This document shows, in pieces, positions 17,549 through 34,176 of a stretch of DNA of 64,000 nucleotides. The notes below the pieces were generated by a model, which was not told where the DNA came from, ran no database searches, and worked only from the letters and a program-made list of their open reading frames with translations. The translations under genes and the position numbers were made by a program. Source of the DNA: Thermoanaerobaculia bacterium (lineage in GTDB: Bacteria; Acidobacteriota; Thermoanaerobaculia; Multivoradales; JAIOJS01); assembly GCA_019911795.1 (NCBI GenBank), contig JAIOJS010000312.1, positions 3,864 to 67,863 on the forward strand. The letters are read 5' to 3'. Every line of letters starts with the position of its first letter. The stretch's first letter is position 1.

Positions 17549-18768
17549 ACATTTGGCAATGGACTCAGGGTGACCTCGATAGCACTGTCGCAAAACGGCG
17601 GATCGAAGTGAGGCCCCTTCTGACGATGGTAGGCCTTGGAATGGCCAGTCTCTTGATCGCCTGTGGCGGTCCCGGTCAGGACGGAGGAGCTGCCCCGCCG
17701 CCGGTCCCTGCGGTCGGAGTCTTGAAGCCGGTACAGCAGCGAGTGACCGACTGGGAGGAGTTCAGCGGCCGGTTGTCGGCGGTCCAGTCGGTCGATGTGC
17801 GAGCGCGCGTCTCGGGATTCGTCGAGCGAGTTCACTTTACCGAGGGTTCGCTGGTCGAGGCGGGTGACCTCCTTTTTACTCTCGATCCGCGGACCTTCCG
17901 CGCCGAGCTGTCTCGCCTGGAAGCGCAGAAGCGAGAGGCGGATGTTCGGCTCGACCTTGCCCGCTCCGAGGCGGCCCGCGTCGAGCCGCTGATCGGTAGC
18001 CGGGCGGTGTCGGTAGAGGAGGTCGAGAAGCGGCGCCAGGACGTCGCCAGTGCCGAAGCTGCGGTAGGCGCGAGTCAGGCTGCCCTCGAGGGCGCACGCC
18101 TCAGCGTCGAGTTCTCGCGCATCGTCGCGCCGATCGCTGGTCGAGTGGGCCGGGCCCAGGTAACTCGGGGCAACCTGGTGAGCGGCGGCGCGGGGGACTC
18201 GACGGTCCTCACCACCCTGCGCTCGATCGATCCGATCTACTTCTACTTCACCCCGGACGAGCGCACCGCTCGTCGCATCCTCGATCCCAGCAAGCCCGGT
18301 ACCGAAGGGGTCGCCGTCGACCTCTTCGTCGGCGAGGGGGGCGAGAGCGCCCAACGCGGCGTCATCGATTTCTTCGACAATAGCGTCGATCCGTCCACCG
18401 GGACCCTGCGCCTACGGGCTGTTTTCCAGAACCCCGACGGTGCACTTCTGCCCGGTATGTTTGGTCGCCTGCGCGTCCGGATCGGCGAGCCTCACTCTGC
18501 TCTTCTGGTGCCGGATCGGGCGATAGGGCGCGACCAAACCCAGCAGTTGCTCTTCATCGTCGGCGATGACGGGATGGTCGAGCGTCGAGTGGTCACGACC
18601 GGAACTCTCGTCGATGGCTGGAGGGTGATCAACACGGGACTCGAAGCACACGAAGACGTTGTTGTCGATGGCATCCAGCGCGCGCGACCGGGCTCCAAGG
18701 TAGACCCGCAGCCGGCTGAACAAGCGACTCCAACCGGCTCGGACGCTCCCGGAGCTTCAGACTCGTGA
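17545..18768 (+). CDS. RND efflux membrane fusion protein (periplasmic adaptor subunit), probable lipoprotein
   Basis: ATG overlaps the GntR stop (ATGA). Lipobox LLIACGG. MFP barrel and lipoyl motifs are present (VDVRARVSGFVERVHFTEGSLVEAGDLLFTLDPRTFRAEL...VAPIAGRVG...GTLRLRAVFQNPDGALLPGMFGRLRV). The long upstream extension of the track ORF (from 17296) is rejected. Confidence 0.75.
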   Translation: MNIWQWTQGDLDSTVAKRRIEVRPLLTMVGLGMASLLIACGGPGQDGGAAPPPVPAVGVLKPVQQRVTDWEEFSGRLSAVQSVDVRARVSGFVERVHFTEGSLVEAGDLLFTLDPRTFRAELSRLEAQKREADVRLDLARSEAARVEPLIGSRAVSVEEVEKRRQDVASAEAAVGASQAALEGARLSVEFSRIVAPIAGRVGRAQVTRGNLVSGGAGDSTVLTTLRSIDPIYFYFTPDERTARRILDPSKPGTEGVAVDLFVGEGGESAQRGVIDFFDNSVDPSTGTLRLRAVFQNPDGALLPGMFGRLRVRIGEPHSALLVPDRAIGRDQTQQLLFIVGDDGMVERRVVTTGTLVDGWRVINTGLEAHEDVVVDGIQRARPGSKVDPQPAEQATPTGSDAPGASDS

Positions 18769-21700: not shown

Positions 21701-21992
21701 ACGGCCGATCCTGATGACGGCGCTGGCCTTCATCCTAGGTGTGGTGCCGCTGGTCCTGGCCACGGGGTCGGGCTTCGAGATGCGACGCAACCTGGGCACA
21801 GCGGTATTCTCCGGGATGATTGGAGTGACTCTGAGTGGTCTCTTCCTCACCCCTGTCTTCTACGTCATCGTGCGCCGATTCGTCGGTGGCGACGGCGGCC
21901 GGGACCCCGGTAGCCGTGACCTCTCCGACCGTGAGACCGATCCAGCCATCGATCCCGAGCTGCTTCCTTCCTCCCCAGGGGTGCGGTCATGA
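18765..21992 (+). CDS. RND efflux permease, HAE1/AcrB family
   Basis: GTG overlaps the upstream stop (GTGA). The N-terminus MRFGHFFIDRPRFAAVISILIVMVGGLAYFQLPITQYPEISPPTVQV matches the canonical AcrB start. The protein is ~1075 aa with 12 TM helices and two large periplasmic loops. Confidence 0.9.
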   Translation: MRFGHFFIDRPRFAAVISILIVMVGGLAYFQLPITQYPEISPPTVQVNLVYPGATAETVSETVAGPIEQAINGVEGMLYLNSSATADGALSISVVFELGTDLDTAQILVQNRIAGVEPRLPEEVRRLGIAVSKSSADFLMVVHLLSPDEVFDELYISNYALLRVADSLRRIRGVGQLIVFGAREYGMRIWLDPERLAAHGLTAGEVVSALRAQNVQVSAGTLGQPPMPLGNAFQFTVGAQGRFETVEEFEQVIVKSGEEGRLTRVVDVARVELGAQDYVRNSYLNGQQAAGVGIFQRPGSNALATAKELRETIAELSKDFPKGLEYRIAYDPTVFVEESVTALNHTIFEAIALVVLVIVLFLQSWRAAVIPIVAIPVSLIGTFAVMQVFGFSLNSLSLFGLVLAIGIVVDDAIVVVEDMERNLERGMESWQAARQTMTEVGSALVSMALVLVAVFVPTIFLGGISGQFFRQFGVTVAVATVISAFNSLTLSPALGALLLRSREKAEDGWFGRLWNRVLGGLFGVFNRGFERFNHGYGRTIRRMLGRPVLAVFIFLVLIAVGALLFTVAPAGFIPHQDQGFLIVAASLPPASSLQRTDAVVLEADALLRAQEGISDVVGIVGFSGATFATASNAAAMFVLLDPIEERGKELSSTNLAQSLQGVLSQIREAQFFVIDPPPVRGLGVGGGFKMMVQDRAGGELPALEAATWQLAGAANQDPRISQAFTTFNNAQPRYWVDIDRVRAQEMGIPLSSIFDTLQIQLGAAYVNDFNRFGRTYRVTAQAEAPFRLDPEDLKRLYVRNRDGEMVPLGSLVTIRQATGTDRVVRYNLYTAAELQGAAAPGFSSSEAIAAMEELAAKHLPSGYGFEWTEIALQEKLAGNSGLWIFPLSVLFVLLLLTAQYESWSLPIAVILIVPLCVVFALFGVWIAGYENNILTQIGFVVLIGLACKNAILVVEFARQKEDQGMGIVEAAAEAARLRLRPILMTALAFILGVVPLVLATGSGFEMRRNLGTAVFSGMIGVTLSGLFLTPVFYVIVRRFVGGDGGRDPGSRDLSDRETDPAIDPELLPSSPGVRS

Positions 21993-23437
21993 GTCGCTTC
22001 GATCTTCGATCCTACGCACAGTTCGCCGCCTGGCCGGCGCCACGAACTCTCCTGGTACCGGTCTTGATGCTGGTCGGCGGCACGGGCTGTGTGGTGGGCC
22101 CCGACTACGAGACCCCAGCGACGACGCAGCCGGTCGTTTATTCGGAGGCCCAGAATCGGGCTGGCTTCGATGCGGCTACGGAGCCCGAAATCGAGTGGTG
22201 GAAGGGTCTCGAGGACCCGGTTCTTGTCGACCTCGTCGAACGAGCCCGACAGAACAACTTCGATCTCGCCGCCAGTGAGGCGCGCCTGCAAGCCGCCCGA
22301 GCCCTCCTCGGACTTCAGAAGTGGCAGCGCTGGCCGGGAGGCTCGGTGTCGGGATCAGTCGAGGAGCGGGACCTTGGCGAGTTCGCCGCCGTCGGCGGTT
22401 CGGATGGCTCGGATACGTACTACTCGGCCGGACTCGATGCCAGCTGGGAGGTCGACCTCTTCGGTCGGATTCGCCGATCGATCGAGGCTCAGGGGGCTAC
22501 CTATGAGGCGGCCGTCAATGACCGTCGCGCCGTCTTCGTTGCGGTGTCGAGCGAGGTGGGAAGGACCTATCTCGAGTTCCGCGGCCTGCAGAGTGCTCTC
22601 GAGGTTGCCCGCCTCACGATCTCCAACGAGGAGGAGAGTCTGGAGATCGTCGAGGCCCTGCAACGAGCCGGACGGGTCACTGACCTGGATGTCGAGCAGT
22701 CGCGCGAGCGGCTCGAGACCACCCGGGCCTTCGTTCCCGACCTGGAGTCGGCGGCGGGACGCGCTCGGCGACGACTTGCGGTGTTGGTGGGAGAGGAGCC
22801 GAGTGCTCTCGATTCTATCCTTACGCCTACCCGAGCCTTGCCTCCGATCCCTGACCGTATCGCTATCGGTGATCCGGCGAGCTTGTTGCGGCGTCGTCCT
22901 GACGTCGTGGCGGCGGAGCGCAGACTCGCCGCCGCGACCGCTCGTATCGGGGTGGCGACGGCGGATCTCTTCCCACGGCTCTCCCTGAACGCCTCCTTCA
23001 GTGCGTTGGCAACCTCACTCGACGACCTCACCAACAGTGGAGCCCAGACAACGCGATTCGGTCCCTTTCTCAGTTGGCCCCTTTTCGATCTCGGACGCGT
23101 TCGCCGCGCCATCGCGGTGACCGAGGCTGATGCCGACGCTCTCGTCGCGGACTATCAGTCCACCGTGCTGCGTAGCCTGGAGGAGACCGAGAACGCCCTG
23201 GAGCGACTCGACAACCATCGACGCCGTCAGGCGCATCGACGGCGAGCCCTAGAGGCCGCGAAGCGCGCTCTCGATCTGGCCAAGCAACGCTACGAGGCGG
23301 GCCTCACCGACTACTTGACCGTGCTCGTGACGGAGGATCGACACCTGGTCGCCGAGGACGCAGTAGTCCGGGGCGCGACCGAGATCGGTACTGCCTACGT
23401 CGCGCTGTACGAAGCCCTGGGAGGGGCCTGGCAGTAG
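21989..23437 (+). CDS. RND efflux outer-membrane factor lipoprotein, NodT family
   Basis: ATG overlaps the upstream stop. Lipobox LVGGTGC is followed by the NodT signature VVGPDY. Two TolC-like repeat halves and the WPLFDLGR motif are present. Confidence 0.8.
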   Translation: MSRFDLRSYAQFAAWPAPRTLLVPVLMLVGGTGCVVGPDYETPATTQPVVYSEAQNRAGFDAATEPEIEWWKGLEDPVLVDLVERARQNNFDLAASEARLQAARALLGLQKWQRWPGGSVSGSVEERDLGEFAAVGGSDGSDTYYSAGLDASWEVDLFGRIRRSIEAQGATYEAAVNDRRAVFVAVSSEVGRTYLEFRGLQSALEVARLTISNEEESLEIVEALQRAGRVTDLDVEQSRERLETTRAFVPDLESAAGRARRRLAVLVGEEPSALDSILTPTRALPPIPDRIAIGDPASLLRRRPDVVAAERRLAAATARIGVATADLFPRLSLNASFSALATSLDDLTNSGAQTTRFGPFLSWPLFDLGRVRRAIAVTEADADALVADYQSTVLRSLEETENALERLDNHRRRQAHRRRALEAAKRALDLAKQRYEAGLTDYLTVLVTEDRHLVAEDAVVRGATEIGTAYVALYEALGGAWQ

Positions 23438-23582
23438 GCGCCGAGAAGTTGGCAGGTCACCGGGCTCCCTCAGGATCTGAGGCGAGGTAGTTTCGGGTGT
23501 AGGGGACGTTCCCGCCACCGTTCCCCGGCGGACACCGTGGCTTTGAGGCCGGTTTCGTCTCCTGTAGACTGCCGTTCGTACA

Positions 23583-24404
23583 ATGGAAGCGAGTAGTCCC
23601 CTCAAGAAAACGACCCCGGCAATCGATGCTGCCCAGAGTCCGCCATCTGGTGTGGTTTTCCTCGCTGCCGGCCGAGGGACTCGCTTGTCGGAGCTCACTG
23701 AAACGACCCATAAGGCTCTCCTTCCAATAGGCGGACAGCCGGTTCTTCAGTATGCCGTCGATCGTGTCCTTGATGCTGGCGTGGAAGATGTCGTCGTTGT
23801 CACTGGGAGCAAAGCGGCGACGCTGGAGGAGTTTCTGCGAGCTAGGTACTCGGACCGAGTCACGCTCGTCTACAACGATCGATTTGCGACCGACACCAAT
23901 ATTCTTTCCACGGAGATCGGTGTCGGTGCCCTGAGACGGCCTGAAGAAGGCTATATGATCATCGAAGCGGACCTGGTGATCGAGCGCGAGGGCTGGTCGC
24001 GAGTTTTGGAGGTTGGTTCTGGGAGTGACTCCTTCTGGGTGACACAGAGCGTCTACGGAGTGAACCGAACCGGGGGAGCCGTGCGAACTGACGTTGCTGG
24101 GAATGTCCGCGACATCGTCTACTCGAACTCCTACAACCCTGCCTACGACGGATGGCGGAAGCTGATGGGTGTTCTCTTCGTGGGACCTAATCAAGTTGCG
24201 AACGATCGACGGCTTAGGCGGGAAGCGATCAGGCGCTCCATTGGACAGTACTACATGATGCCTTGGGTCGAGAACCTTGGCAGTCTTCCCTGCATGGCAA
24301 GGGACCTAGGTGACCTTTTCGCACGTACCTTCAACGATGCCGTCACCTACCAGCAGACAGCGGACGAGGTCAGCGAGTTTGAGAGGCTTGGAATCGCATG
24401 GTAG
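23583..24404 (+). CDS. Sugar/alcohol-phosphate nucleotidyltransferase (LicC-like cytidylyltransferase family)
   Basis: VVFLAAGRGTRLSELTETTHKALLPIGGQPVLQYAVDRVLDAGVEDVVVVTG is the N-terminal NTP_transferase motif (G-x-G-T-R). Confidence 0.6.
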   Translation: MEASSPLKKTTPAIDAAQSPPSGVVFLAAGRGTRLSELTETTHKALLPIGGQPVLQYAVDRVLDAGVEDVVVVTGSKAATLEEFLRARYSDRVTLVYNDRFATDTNILSTEIGVGALRRPEEGYMIIEADLVIEREGWSRVLEVGSGSDSFWVTQSVYGVNRTGGAVRTDVAGNVRDIVYSNSYNPAYDGWRKLMGVLFVGPNQVANDRRLRREAIRRSIGQYYMMPWVENLGSLPCMARDLGDLFARTFNDAVTYQQTADEVSEFERLGIAW

Positions 24405-24790
24405 TCGAGTTGGTCGATCCAGCGTCGCTGAGACACATCGAAGGCTATAGCGTCCGACGCGTGGAGTGGCTTCGGGCCAAGATCCTCGAGGAAGAACTCT
24501 GGACGAAGCCGGTCGCCTTGGACACCGACCACAATTTGGTCTTGGATGGTCAGCATCGGATGGAGGTAGCACTCTCGCTCGGCTTGAGTCGCCTCCCCGC
24601 CGTCAGATTCAACTACGCGAGCGTTGAAGTCTGGAGTCTCAGGCCGAAAAAGTACTCCTTTGGCTGGGACGACGTCGTCAGGCGGGTGTTAGGGGGAGAG
24701 ATCTATCCCTACAAGACGGTCAAGCATCGTTTCCCAGTGGAACTGCCTGCTTGTAGCTTCAGTCTCGAGGAGCTCCGTCGTGAAAGTTGA
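24398..24790 (+). CDS. ParB/sulfiredoxin-fold (ParB-like nuclease domain) small protein; candidate small-molecule kinase or CTP-binding protein
   Basis: The core is ALDTDHNLVLDGQHRMEVALSLGLSRLPAVRF (ParB N-domain 'DGxHR' box). It is 130 aa and has no HTH or dimerisation domain. It overlaps the upstream gene by 7 nt. Confidence 0.45.
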   Translation: MVVELVDPASLRHIEGYSVRRVEWLRAKILEEELWTKPVALDTDHNLVLDGQHRMEVALSLGLSRLPAVRFNYASVEVWSLRPKKYSFGWDDVVRRVLGGEIYPYKTVKHRFPVELPACSFSLEELRRES

Positions 24791-25445
24791 TCAGGCGATC
24801 ATCTTGGCCGCAGGTCGGGGGCACCAGGTGGACGGAATGGCCAAGGTCCTGATTCGACACCCCCGGACTGGACAGACCATTCTTGACCATGCTCGGGCAG
24901 CCTTCGGAGCCAAGAAGATCATCGTGGTGGTCGGGTATCGGGCTATCGAGGTCATGGAATCGGCGCCGGATCTCGAGTTTGTCGTCAACCGTGATTGGGC
25001 GCTGACGAACAATGCCATGAGCTTGGGGCTCGCACTGACGGATGAGCCGACCTATGTGGTGTCCGGTGACATCTTCTTTGGGAAGGACTTGATCGAGCAC
25101 CTCGACCACGGGCAGGATGATTTGGTCCTTACAGACGCCCGCGAGAACAGAACCTTGACCGCGGTCCATTGCGTTTTGCGAGGAGACGGAACCATTTCCG
25201 AGTCGTATCAGGGGCCAGTGCGGGATCCGAAGCATCCCGAGGCAGTGGGGCTCTTCAAGATCTCGGACCCGGACCTTCTTCGGCGTTGGAAACGCCTATG
25301 CATCGCCCATGGGAATCTCTTCGTAGGTCAGACCCTCCCGTGTGACGGTGCCCCGGTTCACTCGGCGTCGAAAGGTGGATACGAGTTCAATGAGATCAAC
25401 ACCCCGACGGACTACTTGCGACTGATGGAGCAGAGTAGAGAGTGA
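24780..25445 (+). CDS. Nucleotidyltransferase (MobA/LicC-like), second copy
   Basis: AIILAAGRGHQV...KVLIRHPRTGQTILDHA...KIIVVVGY matches the NTP_transferase N-terminal motif. It is paralogous to 23583..24404 and overlaps upstream by 11 nt. Confidence 0.55.
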   Translation: MKVDQAIILAAGRGHQVDGMAKVLIRHPRTGQTILDHARAAFGAKKIIVVVGYRAIEVMESAPDLEFVVNRDWALTNNAMSLGLALTDEPTYVVSGDIFFGKDLIEHLDHGQDDLVLTDARENRTLTAVHCVLRGDGTISESYQGPVRDPKHPEAVGLFKISDPDLLRRWKRLCIAHGNLFVGQTLPCDGAPVHSASKGGYEFNEINTPTDYLRLMEQSRE

Positions 25446-26674
25446 TTCGCTCGTTGACGATCGGCCTGCCTCTCGACGTCCTGTCGACGACCGAGATCGA
25501 AAGAACAGTCAAGGAGCTGCTGGGGGTAGCACGTAGGGAGTTCGACCAAAACTCCGTTTCGCCCCGTACGGTTCGCTTTACGCTTCCACCGAGCGGCAAG
25601 GACGGAGAGACCGACGGCGCTTTACTGTCTCGGCTCCGCTGGGTCGATGAGCTGGCCGCGAGCGAAGGGATTCGCTGGTTCTGCTGCCCAGTCGACCTTG
25701 TATCGGCCGGTTCTCCGAAGGTCCGATTGCCGGCTATTCTCGACGGGATTCTCCGCTTCGACCGAATGTTCGCGAATCTCATCCTTGCCCAGGATGGCCG
25801 GATTGCGGTCAATGCACTCTACGAGGCTGCGAAACTCGTTTTGAATCTCTCGCGGAAGAGCAACAATGGCTTCGATAATTTCCGACTGGGAGCCTCTTTC
25901 AACTGTCCCGCGAATGCACCGTTTTTTCCCTTCTCCAGGCATGAAGGGGGCAGGGTTTCGTTCAGTTTTGCACTCGAGACCACCCAGCTGGCTCACCAGA
26001 TCCTGGATGCGATGGGCGAACCTCCCGAACCGGCCTTAGCTAGAGATCGACTGGTGGAGGGGTTGGTACCCTCTTTGGCGCTTGTCGACGAACTTGGCCA
26101 AAGGACTGCGGAGGCTTCGTGCACAGAGTACAAAGGCCTCGATGCTTCACTGGCTCCGATGCCGGTCGATGATGTCTCGGTGGCGGGCCTCGTGGAGCGC
26201 TTGACCGGAGTTCCCGTAGGCAGCCATTCGACCCTGTTCGCGACCGCACTCCTTACTGATTCTCTGCGCACCGCGCTCGCCCAGAGTGGTGTTGCATCCG
26301 TCGGATTCAACGGTGTCATGTATTCCCTGCTCGAGGACCCTGTTCTGGCCGCCGCCAACAACAAGCGCCTCATTACGGTCGACACTCTCCACGCACTATC
26401 GTCCGTCTGTGCTTGCGGCTTAGACATGATCCCCGTGCCTGGGCTTTCCTTCCCGGAAGAGATCAGCGCTCTGATGCTGGACACCGCCGCCCTGTCGAGT
26501 GCCTTGCGAAAGCCACTCGGGGTTAGGTTGTTGCCTATTCCCCAGGGCCACGTGAACGAGTACACGAAATTCAATCTCGACTTCCTCTGCGATAGTCGGA
26601 TCGTGGGTTTGACGTCCAATGACCGACGCATCGCGACTGCGGAGGATCTTTTGGAGTTCCATACACCTCGCTGA
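25442..26674 (+). CDS. Conserved hypothetical protein, possibly UPF0210/DUF711-like
   Basis: The N-terminus MIRSLTIGLPLDVL resembles the 'IRTITMGI' start of UPF0210 proteins, and the ~410 aa length fits. There are no other recognisable catalytic motifs. The gene is translationally coupled (ATGA/GTGA overlaps) on both sides. Confidence 0.3.
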   Translation: MIRSLTIGLPLDVLSTTEIERTVKELLGVARREFDQNSVSPRTVRFTLPPSGKDGETDGALLSRLRWVDELAASEGIRWFCCPVDLVSAGSPKVRLPAILDGILRFDRMFANLILAQDGRIAVNALYEAAKLVLNLSRKSNNGFDNFRLGASFNCPANAPFFPFSRHEGGRVSFSFALETTQLAHQILDAMGEPPEPALARDRLVEGLVPSLALVDELGQRTAEASCTEYKGLDASLAPMPVDDVSVAGLVERLTGVPVGSHSTLFATALLTDSLRTALAQSGVASVGFNGVMYSLLEDPVLAAANNKRLITVDTLHALSSVCACGLDMIPVPGLSFPEEISALMLDTAALSSALRKPLGVRLLPIPQGHVNEYTKFNLDFLCDSRIVGLTSNDRRIATAEDLLEFHTPR

Positions 26675-26698
26675 AGCGGTTATCCGACTGGAGGGTCC

Positions 26699-27406
26699 AT
26701 GATCGACAAAGAGAAGGTCAAGGCGTTTTGGGACGCTAGGGCTAGAAAATACGGGGCCGTCCCCTACGACAGCATCGCAAATCTGGAGCAGGATGCCGAT
26801 AGCCTTGCTCTCAAGGTGGAACTGGAGACAGAGAAGGTCTTCGAGTTTCTGGGCTCGGTGGAGTCGAAGACAGTACTAGACCTAGGAGCGGGTGTCGGAC
26901 AGTGGTCCTTTCGATTCGTCGACCGTGGTGCCAAGGAAGTCTTGGCGGTGGAGTACTCCGCGGAACTTGCTGCGATCGGCCAATCAGAGGTCGAGGCAAG
27001 AGGAGTCTCGAACGTTCGCTTCGTAGTCAGCCCGGCCGAGCGCTTCTCGACGGACAGGACCTTCGACGTTGTCTTCATCTCGGGGCTCTTCGTCTATCTA
27101 ACGGACGACCAAGCCGACGAAGTCCTGAGCCGCTTGCCCGGGGTCTGTCATCCGGACACCATCGTGCTCCTTCGCGATGGCACCGGACTGGAGACTCGAC
27201 ACGAGATTGACGACCGTCTTTCGGGTCACCTGCAGACTCGTTACTCAGCAACCTATCGAACCGCTGCGGTGTACGAGAGACTGTTCGCGGACCATGGCTT
27301 TCGCCTCCTTCGGAGCGAGAACATGTTTGCCGAAGGATGCGTACTCAACAAGTATCCTGAAACTCGTCTCCGGATCTATGAGTTTTCTCTGGGTGGCAGC
27401 GATTGA
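26699..27406 (+). CDS. Class I SAM-dependent methyltransferase
   Basis: Motif I is VLDLGAGVGQWSFRFVDRGAKEVLAVEYS. It is followed by DVVFISGLFVYL and the ~235 aa length is typical of small-molecule methyltransferases. Confidence 0.6.
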   Translation: MIDKEKVKAFWDARARKYGAVPYDSIANLEQDADSLALKVELETEKVFEFLGSVESKTVLDLGAGVGQWSFRFVDRGAKEVLAVEYSAELAAIGQSEVEARGVSNVRFVVSPAERFSTDRTFDVVFISGLFVYLTDDQADEVLSRLPGVCHPDTIVLLRDGTGLETRHEIDDRLSGHLQTRYSATYRTAAVYERLFADHGFRLLRSENMFAEGCVLNKYPETRLRIYEFSLGGSD

Positions 27407-28173
27407 GTCCTAAGATTCTACCGGTCCACTCAGGGGTTGAGTGGCCGCTCAGCGAAGGTACTCTCGGGGTGGTGGGGGTGGCCCCTTGGGCAACCATCGA
27501 GTTCTGTCGCGTGCTGTATGGCGGCGTTCGAGCCTCGAAGGACTGGTGCTACCCCAGGGTCTTGATCGATATCAACACCAAAATCCCAAGCCGTGGGCGT
27601 CACCTGCAGCTCGGTGAGACGGATCCGTCGGCTGCGATCGCTGCCACCATCGAGGAGCTCGCCAGTCAGGGCGCCACGCTCGCTGTGGTCGTCTGCAATA
27701 CCGCCCATATTCTGTTTGATGGCTGGGGTAGGTCAGCGTCGATTCCGGTCCTCAATATCATCGACGAAACAGTTTCTGCCGCCCGAAGCCACGGAGCGCG
27801 GAAGGTCACCCCACTGGTATCGACGTCCCTGGCCAAGGCTGACCTGTACGGAAGTGCGGTGGAGTCTGTTGGACTGGAATGTACCCGCCTCGGTTCGGAG
27901 GACCAGGAGTTGGTTGGCGAGGTTATCGAGCAGATCAAGATTGAGGGCCAGATGGACAGCATCGTGACGGACCGGGTACGGGCCTTGTTGGAAGCGCTAC
28001 GTCTCCGGGGCGTTGACACGGTCCTTGGGGGATGTACTGAACTCTCCTCGCTCGGAGTCCATTGCCAGGATCTCGGGTTGGAGTTTGTCGACTCGAATGC
28101 CGCCTTGGCGAGATCGGCGCTGGCAGGGATCGGAGTCTCCACCGAGGGGACTTGTCTCGATCCTTCCTCCTAG
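27403..28173 (+). CDS. Asp/Glu/hydantoin racemase-family amino-acid racemase
   Basis: LGVVGVAPWATIEF (GGMGP-type N-motif), VVCNTAHILF (first catalytic Cys motif 'CNTAH') and VLGGCTELSSLG (second catalytic Cys motif 'GCTE'). Confidence 0.7.
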   Translation: MSPKILPVHSGVEWPLSEGTLGVVGVAPWATIEFCRVLYGGVRASKDWCYPRVLIDINTKIPSRGRHLQLGETDPSAAIAATIEELASQGATLAVVVCNTAHILFDGWGRSASIPVLNIIDETVSAARSHGARKVTPLVSTSLAKADLYGSAVESVGLECTRLGSEDQELVGEVIEQIKIEGQMDSIVTDRVRALLEALRLRGVDTVLGGCTELSSLGVHCQDLGLEFVDSNAALARSALAGIGVSTEGTCLDPSS

Positions 28174-30080
28174 GTGCCGTCTCGAATGCTGGATTGGCCC
28201 GGCGACTCCCAAGGCTCGTTCTCCACTTCTCTCCAGTTCTTCCGATCGTAGGGATCGCGATCAGTAAGGACCAGTTGTTTCCCGATCACGAAGGCGTTTC
28301 GCTTCTGCTGACTAAACTGCCAGGGGACGATAGAAACAACGAAGGGCTGGTCTCTTCCAAGGGTCTGCACTGGTTTGTCGTCCAAGTAGGGATTGACGCA
28401 ACCGCCAATCTCCTCGCAGACGATCCTTGGCACTTCAGCGTTGGTGAGGAATGCCTCAGAGGTTCTCAAGGGGCCTGAAGTACGAAGCTCTTTGACGAGG
28501 AGAACAGATCTCGAGCGCACAAAGACACTCGCCGTTGAACCTCCTCGAAGCGCGCGACTAGAGTGGTCTTCAACCGGACCGATGATGCCATGGTCGGAGA
28601 CGATCACGATCTTCGTGTTGTCGTAAACGCCAGCCTGCTTCATCCAGCGAAAGTAGTCGGAGACCAGGAGAAGACTACATCGCGCAGCGTTGGCGTGCTG
28701 CATCGCAAACATGCTCGCGTACCCCTCCTTCCGGAAAACCTCGGCGGGAACCTCGAACTGTACCGGCATTGGGTTGCAGTCCTTACTCAAGTAGTAGGGT
28801 TCGTGCGGCAAGATGTTCCACAGGAGGTTGAAGCTACTAGTCGTCGCTTCGCTGGATGTCAGAGTTGGAAGGGACTTGAGTTCGGCCCACTGACGGAAAG
28901 TCGTACCGGCGGAGTGATCGAGAAACGGTCTCCAAGGGCCGCGCTCGCTGAGCACCTCCTTGATTGCATAGGGCGAACTGCGCATCAGGCCGAGAAGAAC
29001 CAGAAGGTCCGCATAATTGGATCGCGAGAGCGCTTCGGTGGGAACCCCGAACTCCTCGGCTCGATCCATCGCCGTCGCCACCGGTATGTGAGAGCAAGTC
29101 ACGTCGTCCATCTCGAGGAAGGAACAGTCTCCCTTCATGGTGAACCCTAGGCCCCGAGGGTTCACCACATTGACGGTATAGCCGCTTCGAGAGAAGTTGT
29201 AGGGCAACAGGCGGTAAGCCTCTACCGAGATGTCTCGGAGGACTCCATTGCGGGAGTTCATTTCGGGCGGAGTGTAGTCGTAGCCGCCAAGAATTGGGTG
29301 CACACCCGAGATTGAGTTGTCGCCGGCGGCAACCGTCAGTGGATACCATTGGAAGCCATCCAATTCAGTCGCGAGTTGGGGTTCCTTCTCCAGGATCTCC
29401 TCTACAAAGCCCCCCATGAAGCGATCGAGGATCAAGATCAGGACATTGTTCTCGTGGCGTGAGAACTGTAGGGGCGCCTCGGTCCCAGCTTCGACACTTG
29501 TAGGCTCGGTTCCGGAGAGCGTGTCCCTTCTCACCTCCAGGATGCCGACGCTAGTGAGGATCACATTGACAAGAAGTATTGCCGTGACCAATCCCCGACC
29601 GCCGAGGTAGTTGATTGAGAGCGTGGTGGCGACAATGATCAAGACGAGAAGGATGGCATCCAGGGTGGTGCGAGCCGCCAGCTCCAGCGCCGTGATCGGA
29701 ATCTGCTCAAACATCAGCCCGTTCATTGCAGGGTAGCCGAGGGGGAGGATGAAGGAATAGAAAAGCGCGGTGAAGAGACCGGTGACTGCTGCCAGGGTCA
29801 GCAGGGTTCGCATGCGAGGAGAGATTGCGAGCGAATAGAGCACCCCGGCAAGATAGACCGCGACCATTGATTCGCCAACGTTGTTGTGAAGGAGGTAGTC
29901 GAGGTGCAAGTCGATCTCGCCGGGAGACGTAAGGAAGGTCATGATCGGTAGGTACACGTAGACAAGCAGGGCGACCGTACCCACTGATAGCAGGTAGGTG
30001 CTCAGCCGCCAGCGACCCAGGTCCTGAGCTACCGACACCATCGCGCCGTCCGAAAAACCAAGGGAGGCTATGCCGGTCAC
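28170..30080 (-). CDS. Membrane-anchored sulfatase-fold phosphotransferase (LTA-synthase / phosphoglycerol- or phosphoethanolamine-transferase-like)
   Basis: The N-terminus has ~5 TM helices. The C-terminal alkaline-phosphatase/sulfatase-fold domain has LILILDRFMGG (metal-binding Asp region) and KIVIVSDHG (conserved SDHG). It converges with the racemase gene with a 4-nt overlap. Confidence 0.6.
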   Translation of the reverse strand: MTGIASLGFSDGAMVSVAQDLGRWRLSTYLLSVGTVALLVYVYLPIMTFLTSPGEIDLHLDYLLHNNVGESMVAVYLAGVLYSLAISPRMRTLLTLAAVTGLFTALFYSFILPLGYPAMNGLMFEQIPITALELAARTTLDAILLVLIIVATTLSINYLGGRGLVTAILLVNVILTSVGILEVRRDTLSGTEPTSVEAGTEAPLQFSRHENNVLILILDRFMGGFVEEILEKEPQLATELDGFQWYPLTVAAGDNSISGVHPILGGYDYTPPEMNSRNGVLRDISVEAYRLLPYNFSRSGYTVNVVNPRGLGFTMKGDCSFLEMDDVTCSHIPVATAMDRAEEFGVPTEALSRSNYADLLVLLGLMRSSPYAIKEVLSERGPWRPFLDHSAGTTFRQWAELKSLPTLTSSEATTSSFNLLWNILPHEPYYLSKDCNPMPVQFEVPAEVFRKEGYASMFAMQHANAARCSLLLVSDYFRWMKQAGVYDNTKIVIVSDHGIIGPVEDHSSRALRGGSTASVFVRSRSVLLVKELRTSGPLRTSEAFLTNAEVPRIVCEEIGGCVNPYLDDKPVQTLGRDQPFVVSIVPWQFSQQKRNAFVIGKQLVLTDRDPYDRKNWREVENEPWESPGQSSIRDGT

Positions 30081-30296
30081 GACGACAAGGTAGAGAAGAC
30101 TTCCGACACTGCAGTTGATCCACAGGACGAAGCAGGCATCGGCAAAGACGATGAGTCCAAAGAGCGCACGTCGGCGGTAGGGCTGCCCGGCGACCAGGGA
30201 AGAGCGAGCACCGCGCCGGAGCGCCGCAATCAGTAGGACGGCATTGAAGACAAGGATGATGAGAGTGGGGATGTTTGACGGCTCCGCGTGGTTTAC

Positions 30297-31022
30297 TTAG
30301 CGTTGGTTGGCGACTTCTTGAATCCGAGCTCTCCATCGCGGTGGAATTCGAGGAGTGAGCTTTGACTCTGTGAGGTTTCGGACAAGAGAGAAGAGGTTGT
30401 TGCTTGTCCAGTAGAGAAGCAGGCCCGAAGGGCTGTTGTAGAGGAGGACGAGAAAAACAGCCGCGAGAATAAACGCTTGACGGCGCTTGGATCGGTCGGC
30501 ATCGTAGGCGAGGGCGGATGCCATATTGAAGACCGTCATCAGGAAAGGCAGGAAATTTGCGCCGAAAAGCAATTCGTCTGGTCTCGAGAGATCGGGGATC
30601 CCCAGATACGAGCTTCCCACAAGGGCTGGCATCTTCGATATGTAGTGGTAGACGGTTGCGAAGACGAGGATCTGCAGGTAGAGGTCTCCGGAGGAGAGGA
30701 CAGCAGAGATGGGCTTATAGCCGAAGGTGCGATGAACCGCACGAGTGTAGAAGTAGCGCTCACGTCCGCTGTAGGTTGCTTTGATGCGAGCAACTTCATC
30801 GTCGACGATCCTGCGCAGGGCGAGGCTCTTTCTACCGTTGATCTCCATCTGAAAATAGAGGGGGAGAAGTAGGAGATTCAACACGCAGCTGAATGCGATC
30901 AGCGCTGAGCCCGGCTCAGGAATGAGGACCAGGATGTGACGGAAGATCCAGTCGTAGATCACCGAAAGGGGCAGTAGGAAGATCGTTTCGAGGAGACTAG
31001 TCATGGTCAGCGAGGATCTCAC
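30297..31022 (-). CDS. Short YidC/Oxa1-family membrane protein insertase paralog
   Basis: It aligns by eye to the E. coli YidC C-terminal core: [22 protein letters not shown] vs [20 protein letters not shown], and the terminal signature [21 protein letters not shown] vs [20 protein letters not shown]. It has 5 TM helices and ~240 aa, like Gram-positive YidC1/2. Confidence 0.65.
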   Translation of the reverse strand: [241 protein letters not shown]

Positions 31023-32256
31023 TTAGCTGCCGTGCGGCGGCCTCGCCCGCTTGGCCGAAGTTGTAGACCAGCCCATCGCGAACTTTCGCCAACTCACTGC
31101 GGTCTTGCTCGAGGAGCTCGGCGAGCCGGTCGGCGAGAGATCCGATTTCTTCCGCCGCGATCGGTACTAGAAATTTGGAGGACTTGCTCTGCAGAGTACT
31201 GAGGCCACCAAATAGTTGACCATCCATGCCGCTGGCAGGCGATTGTCGTAGGAACACGACTGGCTTCTCGAGGATGAAAGCGAACTCGTGCATGATGCCC
31301 GAGATATCACTCAACAGAACATCGGCCTTGGCCATGGCGGGCATGGGGGTCTTCGAGATGTCGACTTCGACCTTGTCGAGTCCCAGAATTTCCTGATAGA
31401 GGACTGGCTGTGAGTGTCGCATCTGAGGATGTGGGCGGACGACGACCCGAAAGCTATCGGTCAGGGTCTCGAGGAACGAGGTGCCGAGGGTCTCGAAAAT
31501 GCTGAGCGGACCCCAACTCGGGGCCACGAGCACGACCGGCCTCTCGGTCGGTAGGTGAGTTGGCAACTCCGGGGACGGGGAAAGCGCCAGGAGTTCATCG
31601 TAGTGGGGCACACCGATCTCATAGAGATTTTTGTAGGGGAGTTTCCGCACAAACTCGATCTTCCTGATGTTGGTCCTTAGGGTTTCTCCACAGCAGAAAA
31701 TGGAGTCGAAGAAATCGTAGGAGTAGGGGCGGACGTAGAGGGCCTCACCCAGAGCGTGCTGAAGGTGAACGTAGTGCGCGACCGCCTTGGAGCGCCGGAA
31801 AGTCATCACGTCCAGTTGCGGTGTCGTTGTCGCCAGAACTCTGGCCCGAAGGTGACTCAGGTAGGAGTACCCGACCATGCCAGGTTCGATGGCGATGTGA
31901 GCGATGCCGCTGGGAAGCGGCTCAAAGTCCTGCGTCCTCTCATACATGGTGAAGTAGGTGGTCTCCACCCCCAACACTGCAAGTCCACGGAGAATGGGGA
32001 GGAAGGTAATCTCGTAGCGAGGGTCTTCCGAATGGATGGCGAGGTGGCAGGTGTGCTTCTTCGTACCGAGCCCAACAATCAGTTCTATGGAGCGGTGGTA
32101 GAGAGCCCGTGCGGCGAAGAAGAAGGACACGACCACTCCCGTAACCACGTAGACGAGAGCGCTGCCTGTTCCTGGGTCGATGTAGGCATGGCACGGAGAG
32201 GAACAGAGGGATAGCGCAATGAATACGAAAGCGACTCGGCGCGGTGCGTTCACCAT
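30997..32256 (-). CDS. CDP-glycerol glycerophosphotransferase family (TagB/TagF-like) with N-terminal membrane anchor
   Basis: The TagF-family catalytic domain has PVVLVAPSWG ('LxAPTWR' box), VVVRPHP (catalytic His region) and LLSDISGIMHEFAFILEKPVVF. I trimmed the start to Met at 32256 (MVNAPRRVAFVFIALSL...). The track ORF extends to 32445. Confidence 0.6.
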   Translation of the reverse strand: MVNAPRRVAFVFIALSLCSSPCHAYIDPGTGSALVYVVTGVVVSFFFAARALYHRSIELIVGLGTKKHTCHLAIHSEDPRYEITFLPILRGLAVLGVETTYFTMYERTQDFEPLPSGIAHIAIEPGMVGYSYLSHLRARVLATTTPQLDVMTFRRSKAVAHYVHLQHALGEALYVRPYSYDFFDSIFCCGETLRTNIRKIEFVRKLPYKNLYEIGVPHYDELLALSPSPELPTHLPTERPVVLVAPSWGPLSIFETLGTSFLETLTDSFRVVVRPHPQMRHSQPVLYQEILGLDKVEVDISKTPMPAMAKADVLLSDISGIMHEFAFILEKPVVFLRQSPASGMDGQLFGGLSTLQSKSSKFLVPIAAEEIGSLADRLAELLEQDRSELAKVRDGLVYNFGQAGEAAARQLSEILADHD

Positions 32257-32586
32257 TGTCCACTCAACGATCTCGCGCTGGCCTGCAGGTACATGCCTCC
32301 AATCCCTTCGCCATGTCGAAGGGCGGGCCGTAAGGCGTCCGAACTGAAGCGACTCGGTTGTGGGGTGGTTCCGGCTGTTGTCTCGGTCCGAAGACCTTTC
32401 CAGCGTTGCTCTCATTGGCTCCCGGGAATGCGGCGGTGAATGCATGTCTTTGAAGAGTCTGTCCCCGCGACGGCCACCGCAGGTGGGATTTTCTTGAGTG
32501 GATAGTCGATGATTCGAGGCTTCGGTATTCTAGCTGGTGGCAATGACCGACCCAGCCACCGAGAGGGCACGCCTCGAGTCTCGTTG

Positions 32587-34176
32587 TCAGGCGGCGTCGT
32601 GACGAACGATTCCAAGGTCGGTGAGGACCTCCATCGCCGCTCGCTCCCCGCTCTCGCAACCGCCCTCCATGTAGCCCTGAAAGTCGACCGAAGTGTGTTC
32701 ACCGGCGAAGTGGAGGTTGCCGACCCGTTCGCCCTCTGCGCCGCCGAAGGCGGTCCACTGACCAGGGCGGTAGCAGGAGTAGCTCCCACGGGTCCACGGG
32801 AAGGATGGCCAGTGAAAGCGCACCTGGTCGGTCACCAGGGATTCGGCACCGGGAAAGACTTGAGCGAAGGCGCGCGCAAACAGTTGTGCTTGTTCGGCCT
32901 CAGAGCCCAGCCCGACCTCCAGTCCGCGACGCCCCCCGGTATAGCCGACAACGATCCCCGGCCGACCGGCCTGGAGGCGGGTGGATTCCCAGGCCAACTG
33001 GAAAGGTAGATCGCCGAGAACACTGCCGTTCGATCCACCTTCGGTTCGCCAGATGCGCTCGGAGAAGCCAACCATCAGTTTGGCATTGGTGCCGTAGCCC
33101 AACTCGGAGATCGCTCGCTGCTTGACGGCGGGTAGCGGCACGGAAACGTCGACCTCGCGGAGGACGCTAAAGGGGAGAGTAAGGACCACGCGATCGGCTC
33201 GTACCTCGCGGGAGCTCGCGCCCTGGCGCAGGGTGACGAGGTAGCTACCGTCAGACGCCTGGGCGAGGGCTTCGAGCCTGGAATCGAGTTCGATCTGTCC
33301 CTGTAGGCCTTCGGCGAGGCGGGTCGGAACTTGATCGTTTCCTCCGCGGATGTGGAAGCGCTCGTCACTGTCGCCGAAGATGCGGAAGGGATCGGGTTCG
33401 CTGTCGATGAGCATCAGAAGGTTCCAGGCCGACTGTTGATCGATCTCCAGTCCGTACTCGGTGACGTAGCCGACCTCGAGGAGCCGACGGAACCAGCCAT
33501 CGCAATCGACGGAATCGAGCCATTCGGCGATCGACAGACGATCGATCTTCTCGCCACCGTTCGGCTCGCGGTAGGAGACCATGTCGCCGGACAGCGAAGC
33601 CCAGGCTTCGTCGATTTGACGGGCGATGGGGCGGAAGGCGGCCACGATCTCGTCGTCGCGGATTCTGCGGCCATCGAAGGCCCAGACATCGCGGGCGAGG
33701 CTGGGATCATCGGCGTCGAAGTCGTCGAGCTCGAGTCCGAGTTCCGTACACAACCCTCGCAACGCAAGGTGGTTGCTGTCGACGAGTTCTCCGCCGAGCT
33801 CACAAACCTGTCCGGCCGGGAAACGATCGCGGAGCGACCACATGCGCCCACCGACTCGCTTCTGGGCTTCGAAGATGCGGACAGGAACTCCCGCCTGATT
33901 GAGGCGATGTGCGCAGGTGAGGCCGGCCACGCCGGCGCCGATGACGACAACTTCCGACGCCCGGTCGACCGGCGAGGAGGGGCGCGGGGTCAGGGTTCGG
34001 CAGCCAAGGGCGACCCCGGCCGCGGTGACGGCGCTGCTCTTGATCAGGGCCCGGCGAGTCCACTCGGGGTCGAGTCTCGTGATGAGGTCCTCGCCGTGGT
34101 GGCCGGAAGTTTCCTCGAGCCTACGGGCCGCTTGCAGCGCCCGTCGCAGGGTACGGAAGAGCGGGGTTCGGGACAT
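32587..34176 (-). CDS. Tat-secreted FAD-dependent amine oxidase (flavin monoamine/polyamine oxidase family)
   Basis: The twin-arginine signal is TRRALIKSSAVTAAGVALG. The dinucleotide-binding motif is VVVIGAGVAGLTCAHRL...RIFEAQKRVGGR. The remainder is a typical amine-oxidase fold. Confidence 0.7.
   Translation of the reverse strand: MSRTPLFRTLRRALQAARRLEETSGHHGEDLITRLDPEWTRRALIKSSAVTAAGVALGCRTLTPRPSSPVDRASEVVVIGAGVAGLTCAHRLNQAGVPVRIFEAQKRVGGRMWSLRDRFPAGQVCELGGELVDSNHLALRGLCTELGLELDDFDADDPSLARDVWAFDGRRIRDDEIVAAFRPIARQIDEAWASLSGDMVSYREPNGGEKIDRLSIAEWLDSVDCDGWFRRLLEVGYVTEYGLEIDQQSAWNLLMLIDSEPDPFRIFGDSDERFHIRGGNDQVPTRLAEGLQGQIELDSRLEALAQASDGSYLVTLRQGASSREVRADRVVLTLPFSVLREVDVSVPLPAVKQRAISELGYGTNAKLMVGFSERIWRTEGGSNGSVLGDLPFQLAWESTRLQAGRPGIVVGYTGGRRGLEVGLGSEAEQAQLFARAFAQVFPGAESLVTDQVRFHWPSFPWTRGSYSCYRPGQWTAFGGAEGERVGNLHFAGEHTSVDFQGYMEGGCESGERAAMEVLTDLGIVRHDAA

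Follow-up and report, generated by a model that had tools for sequence, protein, structure and literature searches.

Gene content and composition of the block

A window of 64,000 nucleotides on contig JAIOJS010000312.1 of a Thermoanaerobaculia bacterium (the whole stretch of DNA that was analysed) contains a compositionally distinct block of exactly nine genes at positions 23500 to 32499, which may encode a two-module system for decorating the bacterial envelope with a small phosphate-linked head group. Six genes on the plus strand, g1 to g6, are called cassette B here. The three genes on the minus strand, g9 (TagF-like), g8 (YidC-like) and g7 (alkaline-phosphatase fold), are called the trio. 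All nine open reading frames of the initial annotation were recovered at the coordinates given there, and as each of them either has a protein-family match or is conserved in numerous homologues they are regarded as real genes and not as chance reading frames. The two convergent operons with short overlaps which it had described were borne out: on the plus strand g1 and g2 overlap by 7 nucleotides, g2 and g3 by 11, g3 and g4 by 4, and g5 and g6 by 4, with a gap of 24 nucleotides instead of an overlap between g4 and g5, and the two operons meet in a 4-nucleotide overlap at 28170-28173. The domain calls also proved to be essentially right, namely a LicC-like g1, a ParB/Srx protein g2, a TagF-like g9, a YidC-family g8 and a membrane-anchored sulfatase or alkaline-phosphatase-fold g7.

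The guanine plus cytosine (GC) content of the block, which as a compositional feature belongs to no strand, is put at 57-59% against 63-66% in the flanks, and in windows of 500 bp it is 0.54-0.61 versus 0.62-0.67 on both sides. This dip of about 6 percentage points, with borders coinciding exactly with the nine-gene block, suggests that the nine genes arrived together as a single island, and the block appears to have been horizontally acquired as one unit. No tRNA gene was found in the 64-kb window and no integration site was identified; an Rfam scan of the block gave neither a riboswitch nor any other RNA, and the block borders showed no sign of a tRNA, an integrase or an Rfam element. A chance adjacency of the two operons was considered and rejected on account of the same convergent layout in a related locus (L006), a co-directional layout in another (L017), and the common GC dip.

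A conserved trio of membrane proteins

Trio loci were gathered by look-ups of exact proteins and by a metagenome scan using alignment; a scan of genome contigs with one protein gave 3 loci. Wherever the flanking sequence sufficed, the genes followed one another as TagF-like, YidC-like and phosphatase-fold, which amounts to about 17 distinct loci; the hosts comprise Myxococcota, Steroidobacteraceae/Povalibacter, Hydrogenophaga sp. H7 and Acidobacteriota, that is four phyla or classes. In distant relatives with 25-30% identity the YidC-like and the phosphatase-fold parts are contained in a single polypeptide, and a TagF-like gene adjoins five of eight loci of this fused type, in one case together with a phosphonate cassette. 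At E<=1e-30, an exhaustive profile search of the wider family yielded 989 clusters formed at 50% identity. Of the listed matches below about 290 bits the majority are 830-1250 amino acids long, and among ten long relatives which were sampled all had an N-terminal 60KD_IMP domain and nine a Sulfatase match. One of the ten, the YidC-sulfatase fusion P0408 (1247 amino acids), was the sole case with a C-terminal NPCBM/NEW2 carbohydrate-binding domain, which would point to a glycan acceptor in that lineage. On the grounds of these sequence data we infer that the three trio proteins may work as one machine. A literature search found no paper uniting YidC, glycerophosphotransferase and sulfatase; the TagF-like/YidC-like/LtaS-EptA-like membrane module is widespread yet undescribed.

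The first gene of the trio is g9, coding for a TagF-like phosphotransferase of 419 amino acids with a GT-B fold (30997-32256, minus strand). Its reading frame reaches 32445, the start being most likely at 32256 as judged from the NCBI record P0121 and the homologues. It passes the cut-off of Pfam Glyphos_transf (PF04464) narrowly, with 25.6 bits versus 22.1 and for residues 267-398 only, and many of its homologues have precomputed matches to the same family. A search of the PDB with the single sequence found nothing. The AlphaFold2 model, with a predicted local distance difference test score (pLDDT) of 84, shows the GT-B fold, and Foldseek placed TagF (3l7k, E=9e-12) on top, Cps3D (8qoy) next and TarL at rank 29; identity to TagF-type polymerases is about 15%. 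The family profile aligned weakly with TarL (E=0.099), in stretches (GxPxxD, APT/SW, R-P-H-P and SDxSG...E) which we take to be equivalent to TagF-family motifs. Invariant in the g9 family are H161/H167 (QHALGE) and R274-P-H276-P, the latter aligning with the HP motif of TarL in this weak alignment; they are candidates for the equivalents of the catalytic histidines His444 and His584 of TagF. Hydropathy and the positive-inside rule predict a cytoplasmic location of the catalytic domain. By analogy with related transferases, g9 probably acts as a single-addition enzyme. All homologues of g9 share a hydrophobic leader ending in AxA, the sequence Y(I/L)DPG(T/S)GS, one transmembrane helix and a basic flank. 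This N-terminus lies at 32080-32256 of the window, and homologues with the same layout are found in L002-L035. The topology of leader, short acidic loop, transmembrane helix and basic flank resembles that of M13 procoat, the classical YidC-only substrate, and is typical of substrates which depend on YidC. A tblastn search against plasmids gave no match to g9, and none to g7.

The second gene, g8 (30297-31022, minus strand), encodes a YidC/Oxa1-family protein of 241 amino acids, which according to the family alignment probably starts at the methionine seven codons in, at 31004. It scores 60.7 bits against Pfam 60KD_IMP (PF02096, cut-off 35) and aligns with YidC of T. maritima with E=7e-7. Asn49 of g8 occupies the position of the arginine which is conserved in the groove, on the first transmembrane helix, of the T. 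maritima and B. halodurans YidC proteins; in 24 aligned members of the g8 family this position holds mostly asparagine, otherwise threonine, cysteine, isoleucine or valine, and in none of them arginine. As the YidC-like part is fused to a phosphatase-fold protein in relatives, it is likely to be a working component of the enzyme and not a transient biogenesis factor, and the fusion to a sulfatase-fold enzyme suggests a specialised role for g8. A role in lipid flipping is conceivable as well, since lipid scrambling is reported for insertases including YidC (PMC11047089).

The third gene, g7 (28170-30296, minus strand, with a canonical-start reading frame at 28170-30080), codes for a multi-transmembrane protein whose periplasmic domain belongs to the alkaline-phosphatase superfamily and is of the LtaS/EptA/PbgA type, as seen with AlphaFold2 and Foldseek. 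It has hundreds of homologues at 50-58% identity. A single-sequence search of the PDB detected no relative, and in the profile search similarity to LtaS/EptA-type enzymes was confined to the motif ...YDNT..V.SDHG. The AlphaFold2 model (pLDDT 82) retrieved full-length PbgA/YejM and also LtaS, LtaP, MCR-1 and sulfatases in Foldseek. The catalytic domain is predicted to be extracytoplasmic/periplasmic by hydropathy and the positive-inside rule. D219, S256 and D496-H497 are invariant in 29 sequences. The roles of metal ligands and nucleophile were assigned by motif position and not by superposition: S256, the first residue of a helix extending from 256 to 269, sits at the nucleophile position of the superfamily, and D219 together with D496-H497 fits the metal-site pattern of LtaS/EptA-type enzymes. 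While g7 itself gave a weak match to DUF229 only and did not reach Pfam PF00884, the latter is matched by several homologues 52-57% identical to g7 and by all but one of the sampled fused relatives, mostly above the cut-off. A true sulfatase was discarded as an assignment for g7; the surroundings of the nucleophile read GDNSISGVHP and the C/S-x-P-x-R formylglycine motif is absent.

The 216-nucleotide "gap" between g8 and g7 (30081-30296, minus strand) is open over 72 codons in the same frame as both genes and starts right after the TAA of g8. It encodes two hydrophobic transmembrane helices homologous to the N-termini of g7 relatives, and in it no ATG, GTG or TTG precedes 30080, the codon after the TAA of g8 being GTA. 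Non-canonical initiation, an assembly error (GTA for GTG) and a real truncation of the 5' region of g7 are all possible.

The six-gene cassette and its probable role in donor synthesis

The first gene of the plus strand, g1 (23583-24404), encodes a LicC-like nucleotidyltransferase, presumably a cytidylyltransferase, of 273 amino acids, which gave 50.8 bits with Pfam NTP_transf_3 and 42.8 bits with NTP_transferase. The closest solved structure is the cytidine triphosphate (CTP):phosphocholine cytidylyltransferase LicC (1jyk, E=7.6e-12), and the canonical LAAGRGTRL...K signature is kept in five cassette copies. It is followed by g2 (24398-24790), a ParB/Srx-fold protein of 130 amino acids which may be viewed as a minimal homologue of SerK and SbnI. 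It matches the free serine kinase structures 5x0b/5x0e in two stretches; H53 of g2 aligns with His72 of SerK (5x0b), which we take to be the catalytic residue, and the DGxHR motif is invariant in the five cassette copies. Near-full-length homologues of g2 (about 145 amino acids, 33-39% identity) adjoin sbnA/sbnB in the staphyloferrin B cluster of Ralstonia and on plasmids of Agrobacterium vitis and Aureimonas. SbnA consumes O-phospho-L-serine, and this context therefore supports a serine-kinase role for g2. The homologues in question (L041, 8935-9375, on the megaplasmid of Ralstonia solanacearum; L039, 7983-8426; L040, 8001-8435) have no annotation beyond "ParB N-terminal domain-containing protein" or "transcriptional regulator". 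Judging from sequence, these proteins beside the genes of L-2,3-diaminopropionic acid synthesis are probably unrecognised mini serine kinases.

A second, MobA-like nucleotidyltransferase fold of 221 amino acids is found in g3 (24780-25445; Pfam NTP_transf_3, 33.4 bits). In all five cassette copies its signature is degenerate, with AAGRGxQ instead of GxGxR. The 410-amino-acid protein g4 (25442-26674) had been listed as unknown in the initial annotation. Its family can be identified as DUF711/UPF0210 (Pfam DUF711, 187 bits; PDB 2ha9, E=6e-16), with a ten-stranded barrel resembling those of ribonucleotide reductase and pyruvate formate-lyase (PFL). No function is known for this family, and no functional literature on DUF711/UPF0210 was found. 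The subfamily of g4 occurs with 50-67% identity across many metagenomes, always inside the same six-gene cassette, and tblastn against plasmids retrieved only canonical "PFL family" UPF0210 genes with 30-36% identity.

The class I S-adenosylmethionine (SAM) methyltransferase g5 (26699-27406, 235 amino acids; Pfam Methyltransf_25, 56.8 bits) has as its closest solved relatives the phosphoethanolamine N-methyltransferases of plants and nematodes (5wp4/5wp5, E=4e-11). It is proposed to be a head-group N-methyltransferase, by analogy with FtaC, the methyltransferase of a flagellin modification pathway discussed below, to which it would correspond in position. The last gene, g6 (27403-28173), encodes a two-cysteine amino-acid racemase of the Asp/Glu type with 256 amino acids (Pfam Asp_Glu_race, PF01177, 88 bits). 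It passes the cut-off of TIGR00035 (106.6 versus 93.1 bits) and misses that of the cysteate racemase CuyB (140.6 versus 190 bits), which is nevertheless its best family match; cysteate is close in shape to phosphoserine. The catalytic-cysteine motifs CNTAH and GCTELS are kept in the five copies. With both catalytic cysteines present, an arylmalonate-decarboxylase-type enzyme was rejected for g6. The idea of a head group containing a D-amino acid, raised from the racemase in the initial annotation, holds in outline.

Exchange of partner cassettes

The identical order of nucleotidyltransferase, ParB-like protein, second nucleotidyltransferase, DUF711 protein, methyltransferase and racemase was found in the window and in L006, L017, L036, L037 and L038. 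In the window, L006 and L017 the cassette stands with the trio, all genes of L017 being on one strand. In L036-L038 it stands without the trio, among glycosyltransferases in polysaccharide clusters, and in L038 a classical Glyphos_transf gene of 562 amino acids follows directly. Cassette B thus looks like a portable donor-synthesis module which would feed TagF-like transferases. A conservation of the plus-strand genes together with the minus-strand genes, by which the initial annotation had proposed to judge its assignment, is seen in modular form only: the cassette accompanies the trio in three loci, the trio is mostly found with other cassettes, and the cassette also occurs on its own.

At least five alternative small cassettes flank the trio, cassette B being one of them. 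Cassette A, present in seven loci and in Povalibacter, consists of a methyltransferase of 197 amino acids and of a fusion between a TagD-like cytidylyltransferase and a ParB domain of the SerK/SbnI kind; g2 is homologous to the C-terminal domain of this fusion (E=3e-10). Cassette C (L016 and Hydrogenophaga L042) contains a methyltransferase, a SerB/ThrH-like enzyme of the haloacid dehalogenase (HAD) family and an IspD-like nucleotidyltransferase, and cassette D (L008/L022) a methyltransferase and a nucleotidyltransferase. Cassette E (L023, 9850-12788) encodes a protein resembling opine dehydrogenases together with a fusion of a nucleotidyltransferase and a CobD-like decarboxylase of phospho-amino acids, and its product could be an N-(carboxyalkyl)aminoalcohol phosphate activated with cytidine diphosphate (CDP). 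Fused YidC-sulfatase relatives stand beside phosphonate cassettes in L028 (1626-5735), L030 and L032 (1002-12636). These cassettes comprise fusions of phosphoenolpyruvate (PEP) mutase with cytidylyltransferase, the phosphonopyruvate decarboxylase Ppd, and an aminotransferase or an iron-containing alcohol dehydrogenase (Fe-ADH), and in L032 a TagF-like gene also adjoins the fused protein and the phosphonate cassette. The trio looks like a general installer, because all partner cassettes make nucleotide-activated small head groups bearing an amine or a phosphonate. A module of the trio type may be the installer which has so far been lacking for phosphonates activated with cytidine monophosphate (CMP).

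Acceptor candidates and neighbouring genes

No pilin-type gene was found when it was sought in the 64-kb window, and the idea of a pilin acceptor is therefore unsupported for this genome. In eight related loci with three cassette types, genes of type IV pilins lie within 10 kb of the trio (major-pilin genes in L004/L005, L012, L013, L015, L016, L023, L042 and L043). Some of these loci also contain pilB/pilC, pilR/pilS or extra sulfatase-family membrane proteins of 695-740 amino acids, and extra membrane proteins of the PF00884 family occur alongside in three of the pilin loci and in L014. Neisseria PptA, which belongs to the same superfamily as g7, puts phosphoethanolamine or phosphocholine on pilin (PMC4010543). 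The pilin-adjacent copies hint at a modification of pilin with phospho-forms in some relatives, which would be new ones beyond those of PptA. Polysaccharide genes adjoin other relatives of the trio, and in the window, L002 and L006 no acceptor-specific gene is kept next to it. The envelope acceptor may vary between lineages.

Among the neighbours of the trio are large fusions resembling a major facilitator superfamily transporter and spermidine synthase, which were seen in two unrelated loci (L006, 4194-6872, 892 amino acids; L014, 7393-10530, 1045 amino acids); L006 also has a PAP2 phosphatase and a UbiA prenyltransferase near the trio. In the window itself a flavin amine oxidase whose signal is of the twin-arginine type (TRRALIK) is encoded just outside the low-GC block (32587-34176, minus strand) and is not kept beside the trio in other loci. 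Directly upstream of the block, at 18765-23437, a resistance-nodulation-division (RND) efflux transporter of 1075 amino acids and a NodT-type outer-membrane factor of 482 amino acids overlap each other by 4 nucleotides. These two genes support a diderm envelope of the host. The Gram-negative-type lineage which had been suspected from the sequence is in line with this and with the assignment of the host to Thermoanaerobaculia.

A proposed pathway and its alternatives

What the sequences show directly is the gene content, the folds, the conservation of catalytic motifs, the synteny, the fusion of domains and the swapping of cassettes, and from these observations a pathway can be drafted. The most fitting description of the locus is an Fta-like donor module for CDP-amino acids, coupled to a membrane trio which is widespread but has not been described before. 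We propose, with a probability of roughly 0.45, that the block is a two-module system decorating the envelope with a small zwitterionic phospho-head group by way of a CDP-linked N-methylated serine derivative, the phosphoserine-derived head group probably having the D-configuration. In module 1, where the substrates and the order of steps are those which we infer, g2 would phosphorylate free serine to O-phosphoserine, g6 would invert the alpha-carbon to the D-form, acting on serine, phosphoserine or the CDP conjugate, and g1 would join the phospho-amino acid with CTP to yield a CDP-amino acid. This would then be N-methylated by g5 with SAM, and g3 and g4 might contribute a further tailoring step. 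In module 2 the cytoplasmic GT-B domain of g9 would use the CDP donor to place the phospho-head group on a hydroxyl of a membrane acceptor or putative lipid carrier, with release of CMP. The hydrophilic groove of g8 may hold the anchor of g9, flip the charged lipid-linked intermediate, or both. The periplasmic domain of g7 would finally take the phospho-head group on Ser256 and hand it over to the presumed envelope acceptor, much as LtaS, EptA, PptA, BcsG and OpgB transfer phospho-head groups from phospholipids (phosphatidylglycerol or phosphatidylethanolamine) to envelope targets. The sequence of kinase, CDP activation and phosphotransfer which had been read from the genes at the outset is retained in outline, with substrates as proposed here.

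A more far-reaching version of the scheme is doubtful at present. It holds that the YidC-family domain, which most members of the family have fused to the enzyme, would be a permanent relay subunit and no longer an insertase, with a groove that is devoid of the canonical arginine, docks the anchor of g9 and conducts the charged lipid across the inner membrane to g7. The head groups installed by the relay would be zwitterionic, exchangeable and activated with CDP or CMP (phosphates of D-amino acids, amines of the opine type, phosphonates), their targets in diderms being pilins, glycans or lipids, and the DUF711 protein would tailor the CDP-linked amino acid. If true, this would be a previously unrecognised and widespread three-component system in diderm bacteria.

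Several points weigh against the N-methylserine scheme. The score of g2 with the NCBIfam SerK model NF053625 is 23.7 bits where the equivalog cut-off is 380; with 130 amino acids it is much shorter than SerK and SbnI (242-254 amino acids), the part corresponding to SerK residues of about 105-205 being missing; and asparagine stands opposite SerK His72 in the protein of cassette A. Cassette B accompanies the trio in only three of the roughly 17 loci. The relation to Fta was drawn at the level of domains and logic. g3 and the DUF711 protein could make the head group quite a different one, for instance of the ethanolamine or choline kind if they decarboxylate it, and g8 might be a dedicated insertase, although this would account less well for the fusion.

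The first of these two possibilities can be spelled out as a pathway in which g2 phosphorylates serine, the DUF711 protein with or without g3 decarboxylates it, g5 methylates it, g1 activates it, and g9 and g7 install phosphocholine or N-methyl-phosphoethanolamine. It has on its side that LicC and phosphoethanolamine N-methyltransferases are the closest solved relatives of g1 and g5, that the CobD-like decarboxylase fusion of cassette E in L023 shows decarboxylated head groups to occur with the trio, and that PptA equips pilin with phosphoethanolamine and phosphocholine (PMC4010543). The strictly conserved two-cysteine racemase, however, would be pointless if decarboxylation destroyed the stereocentre, a decarboxylase activity is not known for DUF711 proteins, no candidate for such an enzyme is found in cassettes A, C and D, and FtaC, the methyltransferase shown in the closest pathway, acts on a CDP-amino acid, so that this head group is unlikely. 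Similarly improbable is a role of g8 as a mere insertase or chaperone for g7, with its five to seven transmembrane segments, and for the anchor of g9, with g9 and g7 acting on separate substrates (for example a cytoplasmic lipid-linked glycan and an ordinary phospholipid donor). g8 is a genuine member of the 60KD_IMP family, the N-terminus of g9 shares the topology of M13 procoat, and accessory YidC paralogues with special clients occur in Firmicutes. A permanent fusion of an insertase with its client over hundreds of clusters would nevertheless be odd for a catalyst which acts once, the groove arginine is missing in every aligned member of the g8 family, and strict synteny of three genes with swappable donor cassettes implies that g7 depends on the product of g9.

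The initial annotation had likened the locus to teichoic-acid or phosphocholine (lic) pathways, and this did not hold up. Little credence is left for a teichoic-acid-like polymer, in which g9 would polymerise an alditol or alcohol phosphate and g7 would polymerise or ligate in the manner of LtaS. In its favour, g9 is closest to TagF and TarL by fold and profile, and LtaS and LtaP are among the best fold matches of g7, but TagD-type glycerol-3-phosphate cytidylyltransferase, the ribitol pathway (TarIJ), TagO/TagA/TagB and TagGH are all absent from the block and its immediate neighbours. The partner cassettes, moreover, all make amine or phosphonate head groups without a free hydroxyl for chain growth, so that a phospho-amino-acid head group excludes polymerisation of the teichoic type, and FtaD shows that TagF-like enzymes can add single groups. 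In the comparison with lic loci, no family match to LicA, LicB or LicD was found among the nine proteins, and only g1 resembles a Lic protein, LicC. A capsule or lipopolysaccharide-core locus was rejected as well, as there are no Kps/Wzx/Waa-type genes and the family libraries give no such names. Very improbable, too, is a new phospholipid of the phosphatidyl-N-methylserine kind as the final product, which g9 would form from diacylglycerol in a Kennedy-style reaction, g8 would equilibrate between the leaflets and g7 would remodel or degrade. The membrane anchor and cytoplasmic catalytic domain of g9, the lack of an acceptor-specific gene kept beside the trio in the window, L002 and L006, and the phospholipid scrambling reported for YidC-type proteins (PMC11047089) would suit it. 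g7, however, retains the full pattern of transferase nucleophile and metal site, one relative has the carbohydrate-binding NPCBM domain, and genes for type IV pilins and polysaccharides often lie nearby, pointing to something other than a lipid as the final acceptor.

The locus is of importance in several respects. With about 1,000 clusters the trio offers a concrete and testable case of a YidC paralogue which acts beyond general protein insertion, and it is a candidate for the route by which activated head groups, CMP-phosphonates among them, get to their targets in the periplasm. Cassette B gives DUF711/UPF0210, a family with a solved structure, a defined biochemical context of six genes.

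Comparison with known systems

The closest precedent for the logic of the plus strand is, by analogy, the Fta pathway (ftaABCD, cd0241-cd0244) for the Type A modification of C. difficile flagellin, which the initial annotation had left out of account. According to a 2026 preprint this pathway uses CDP-threonine: FtaC was shown to N-methylate CDP-threonine, and the TagF-like FtaD to transfer phospho-N-methylthreonine to a sugar hydroxyl of N-acetylglucosamine, while FtaA (a HAD protein) and FtaB (a nucleotidyltransferase) are the predicted makers of the donor, PA1088-PA1091 of P. aeruginosa being analogous. The proposed route from phospho-amino acid to CDP-amino acid, SAM-dependent N-methylation and TagF-like transfer to a hydroxyl is the same, a nucleotidyltransferase, a small SAM methyltransferase and a TagF-like transferase stand in one locus (g1, g5 and g9 in the window), and cassette C of L016 and L042 has the domain set of FtaC, FtaA and FtaB. 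In contrast to Fta, the window has no HAD protein but a SerK-like ParB/Srx protein in the place of FtaA, and it adds a racemase, a DUF711 protein and a second nucleotidyltransferase fold. Its TagF-like enzyme is membrane-anchored and coupled to YidC-like and periplasmic LtaS/EptA-like partners, a flagellin context is lacking, and the hosts are diderms from the environment. CDP-amino acids have been shown to be real only in the 2026 preprint and only for the flagellin glycans of two pathogens, and nothing on CDP-serine was found in the literature. The present locus suggests that CDP-amino-acid chemistry is widespread in environmental diderms, with a different kinase and probably with D-amino acids.

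With the Lic system the block shares a LicC-like enzyme and the route from kinase through activation to transfer, which leads to a zwitterionic phospho-form on the surface. LicA, LicB and LicD are lacking in the block, where the kinase has the ParB/Srx fold and the transferases are TagF-like and of the sulfatase fold. g2 resembles SerK of Thermococcus and SbnI of Staphylococcus in the ParB/Srx fold, the DGxHR motif and a C-terminal stretch of the GE.Y.PKT..H kind, and differs in its proposed use for head-group synthesis instead of the synthesis of cysteine or a siderophore. g9 has the GT-B fold of TagF/TarL and Cps3D with a PF04464 match above the cut-off; unlike TagF/TarL it has a procoat-like anchor with an invariant YIDPGTGS, and it is accompanied by neither CDP-glycerol or CDP-ribitol genes nor an ATP-binding cassette exporter.

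The architecture of g7, an N-terminal multi-transmembrane part followed by an extracytoplasmic sulfatase fold, is that of LtaS/LtaP, EptA/MCR-1/EptC, PptA, BcsG, OpgB, GacH and the non-catalytic PbgA/YejM. The conserved aspartate, the Ser/Thr-type nucleophile at the N-terminus of a helix and the DH metal pair are found in g7 as in the LtaS/EptA-type enzymes, the ping-pong mechanism proposed for it, with a lipid as donor of the phospho-head group, matches theirs, and with PptA its relatives have the pilin-locus context in common. What no described member shows, however, is the coupling or fusion of such an enzyme with a YidC-like domain and with a cytoplasmic TagF-like enzyme dedicated to it.

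PntC pathways make CMP-2-aminoethylphosphonate for cell-surface phosphonates (PMC6697681). Distant modules of fused YidC-sulfatase and TagF-like proteins have Ppm-PntC fusions, Ppd and either an aminotransferase or an Fe-ADH as neighbours, which suggests that the trio type may also install CMP-activated phosphonates. The window, in contrast, has no PEP mutase, and the PntC papers name LicD-like transferases and not TagF-like or YidC-like partners. A similar division of labour is realised in the ArnC/ArnEF/ArnT and CsbB/GtcA/YfhO systems, where the lipid carrier is charged by a cytoplasmic enzyme and flipped by a small membrane protein, before an enzyme at the periplasmic face passes the load on to the envelope target. 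The three protein families of the trio are all different from these, and it would move a phospho-head group and not a sugar.

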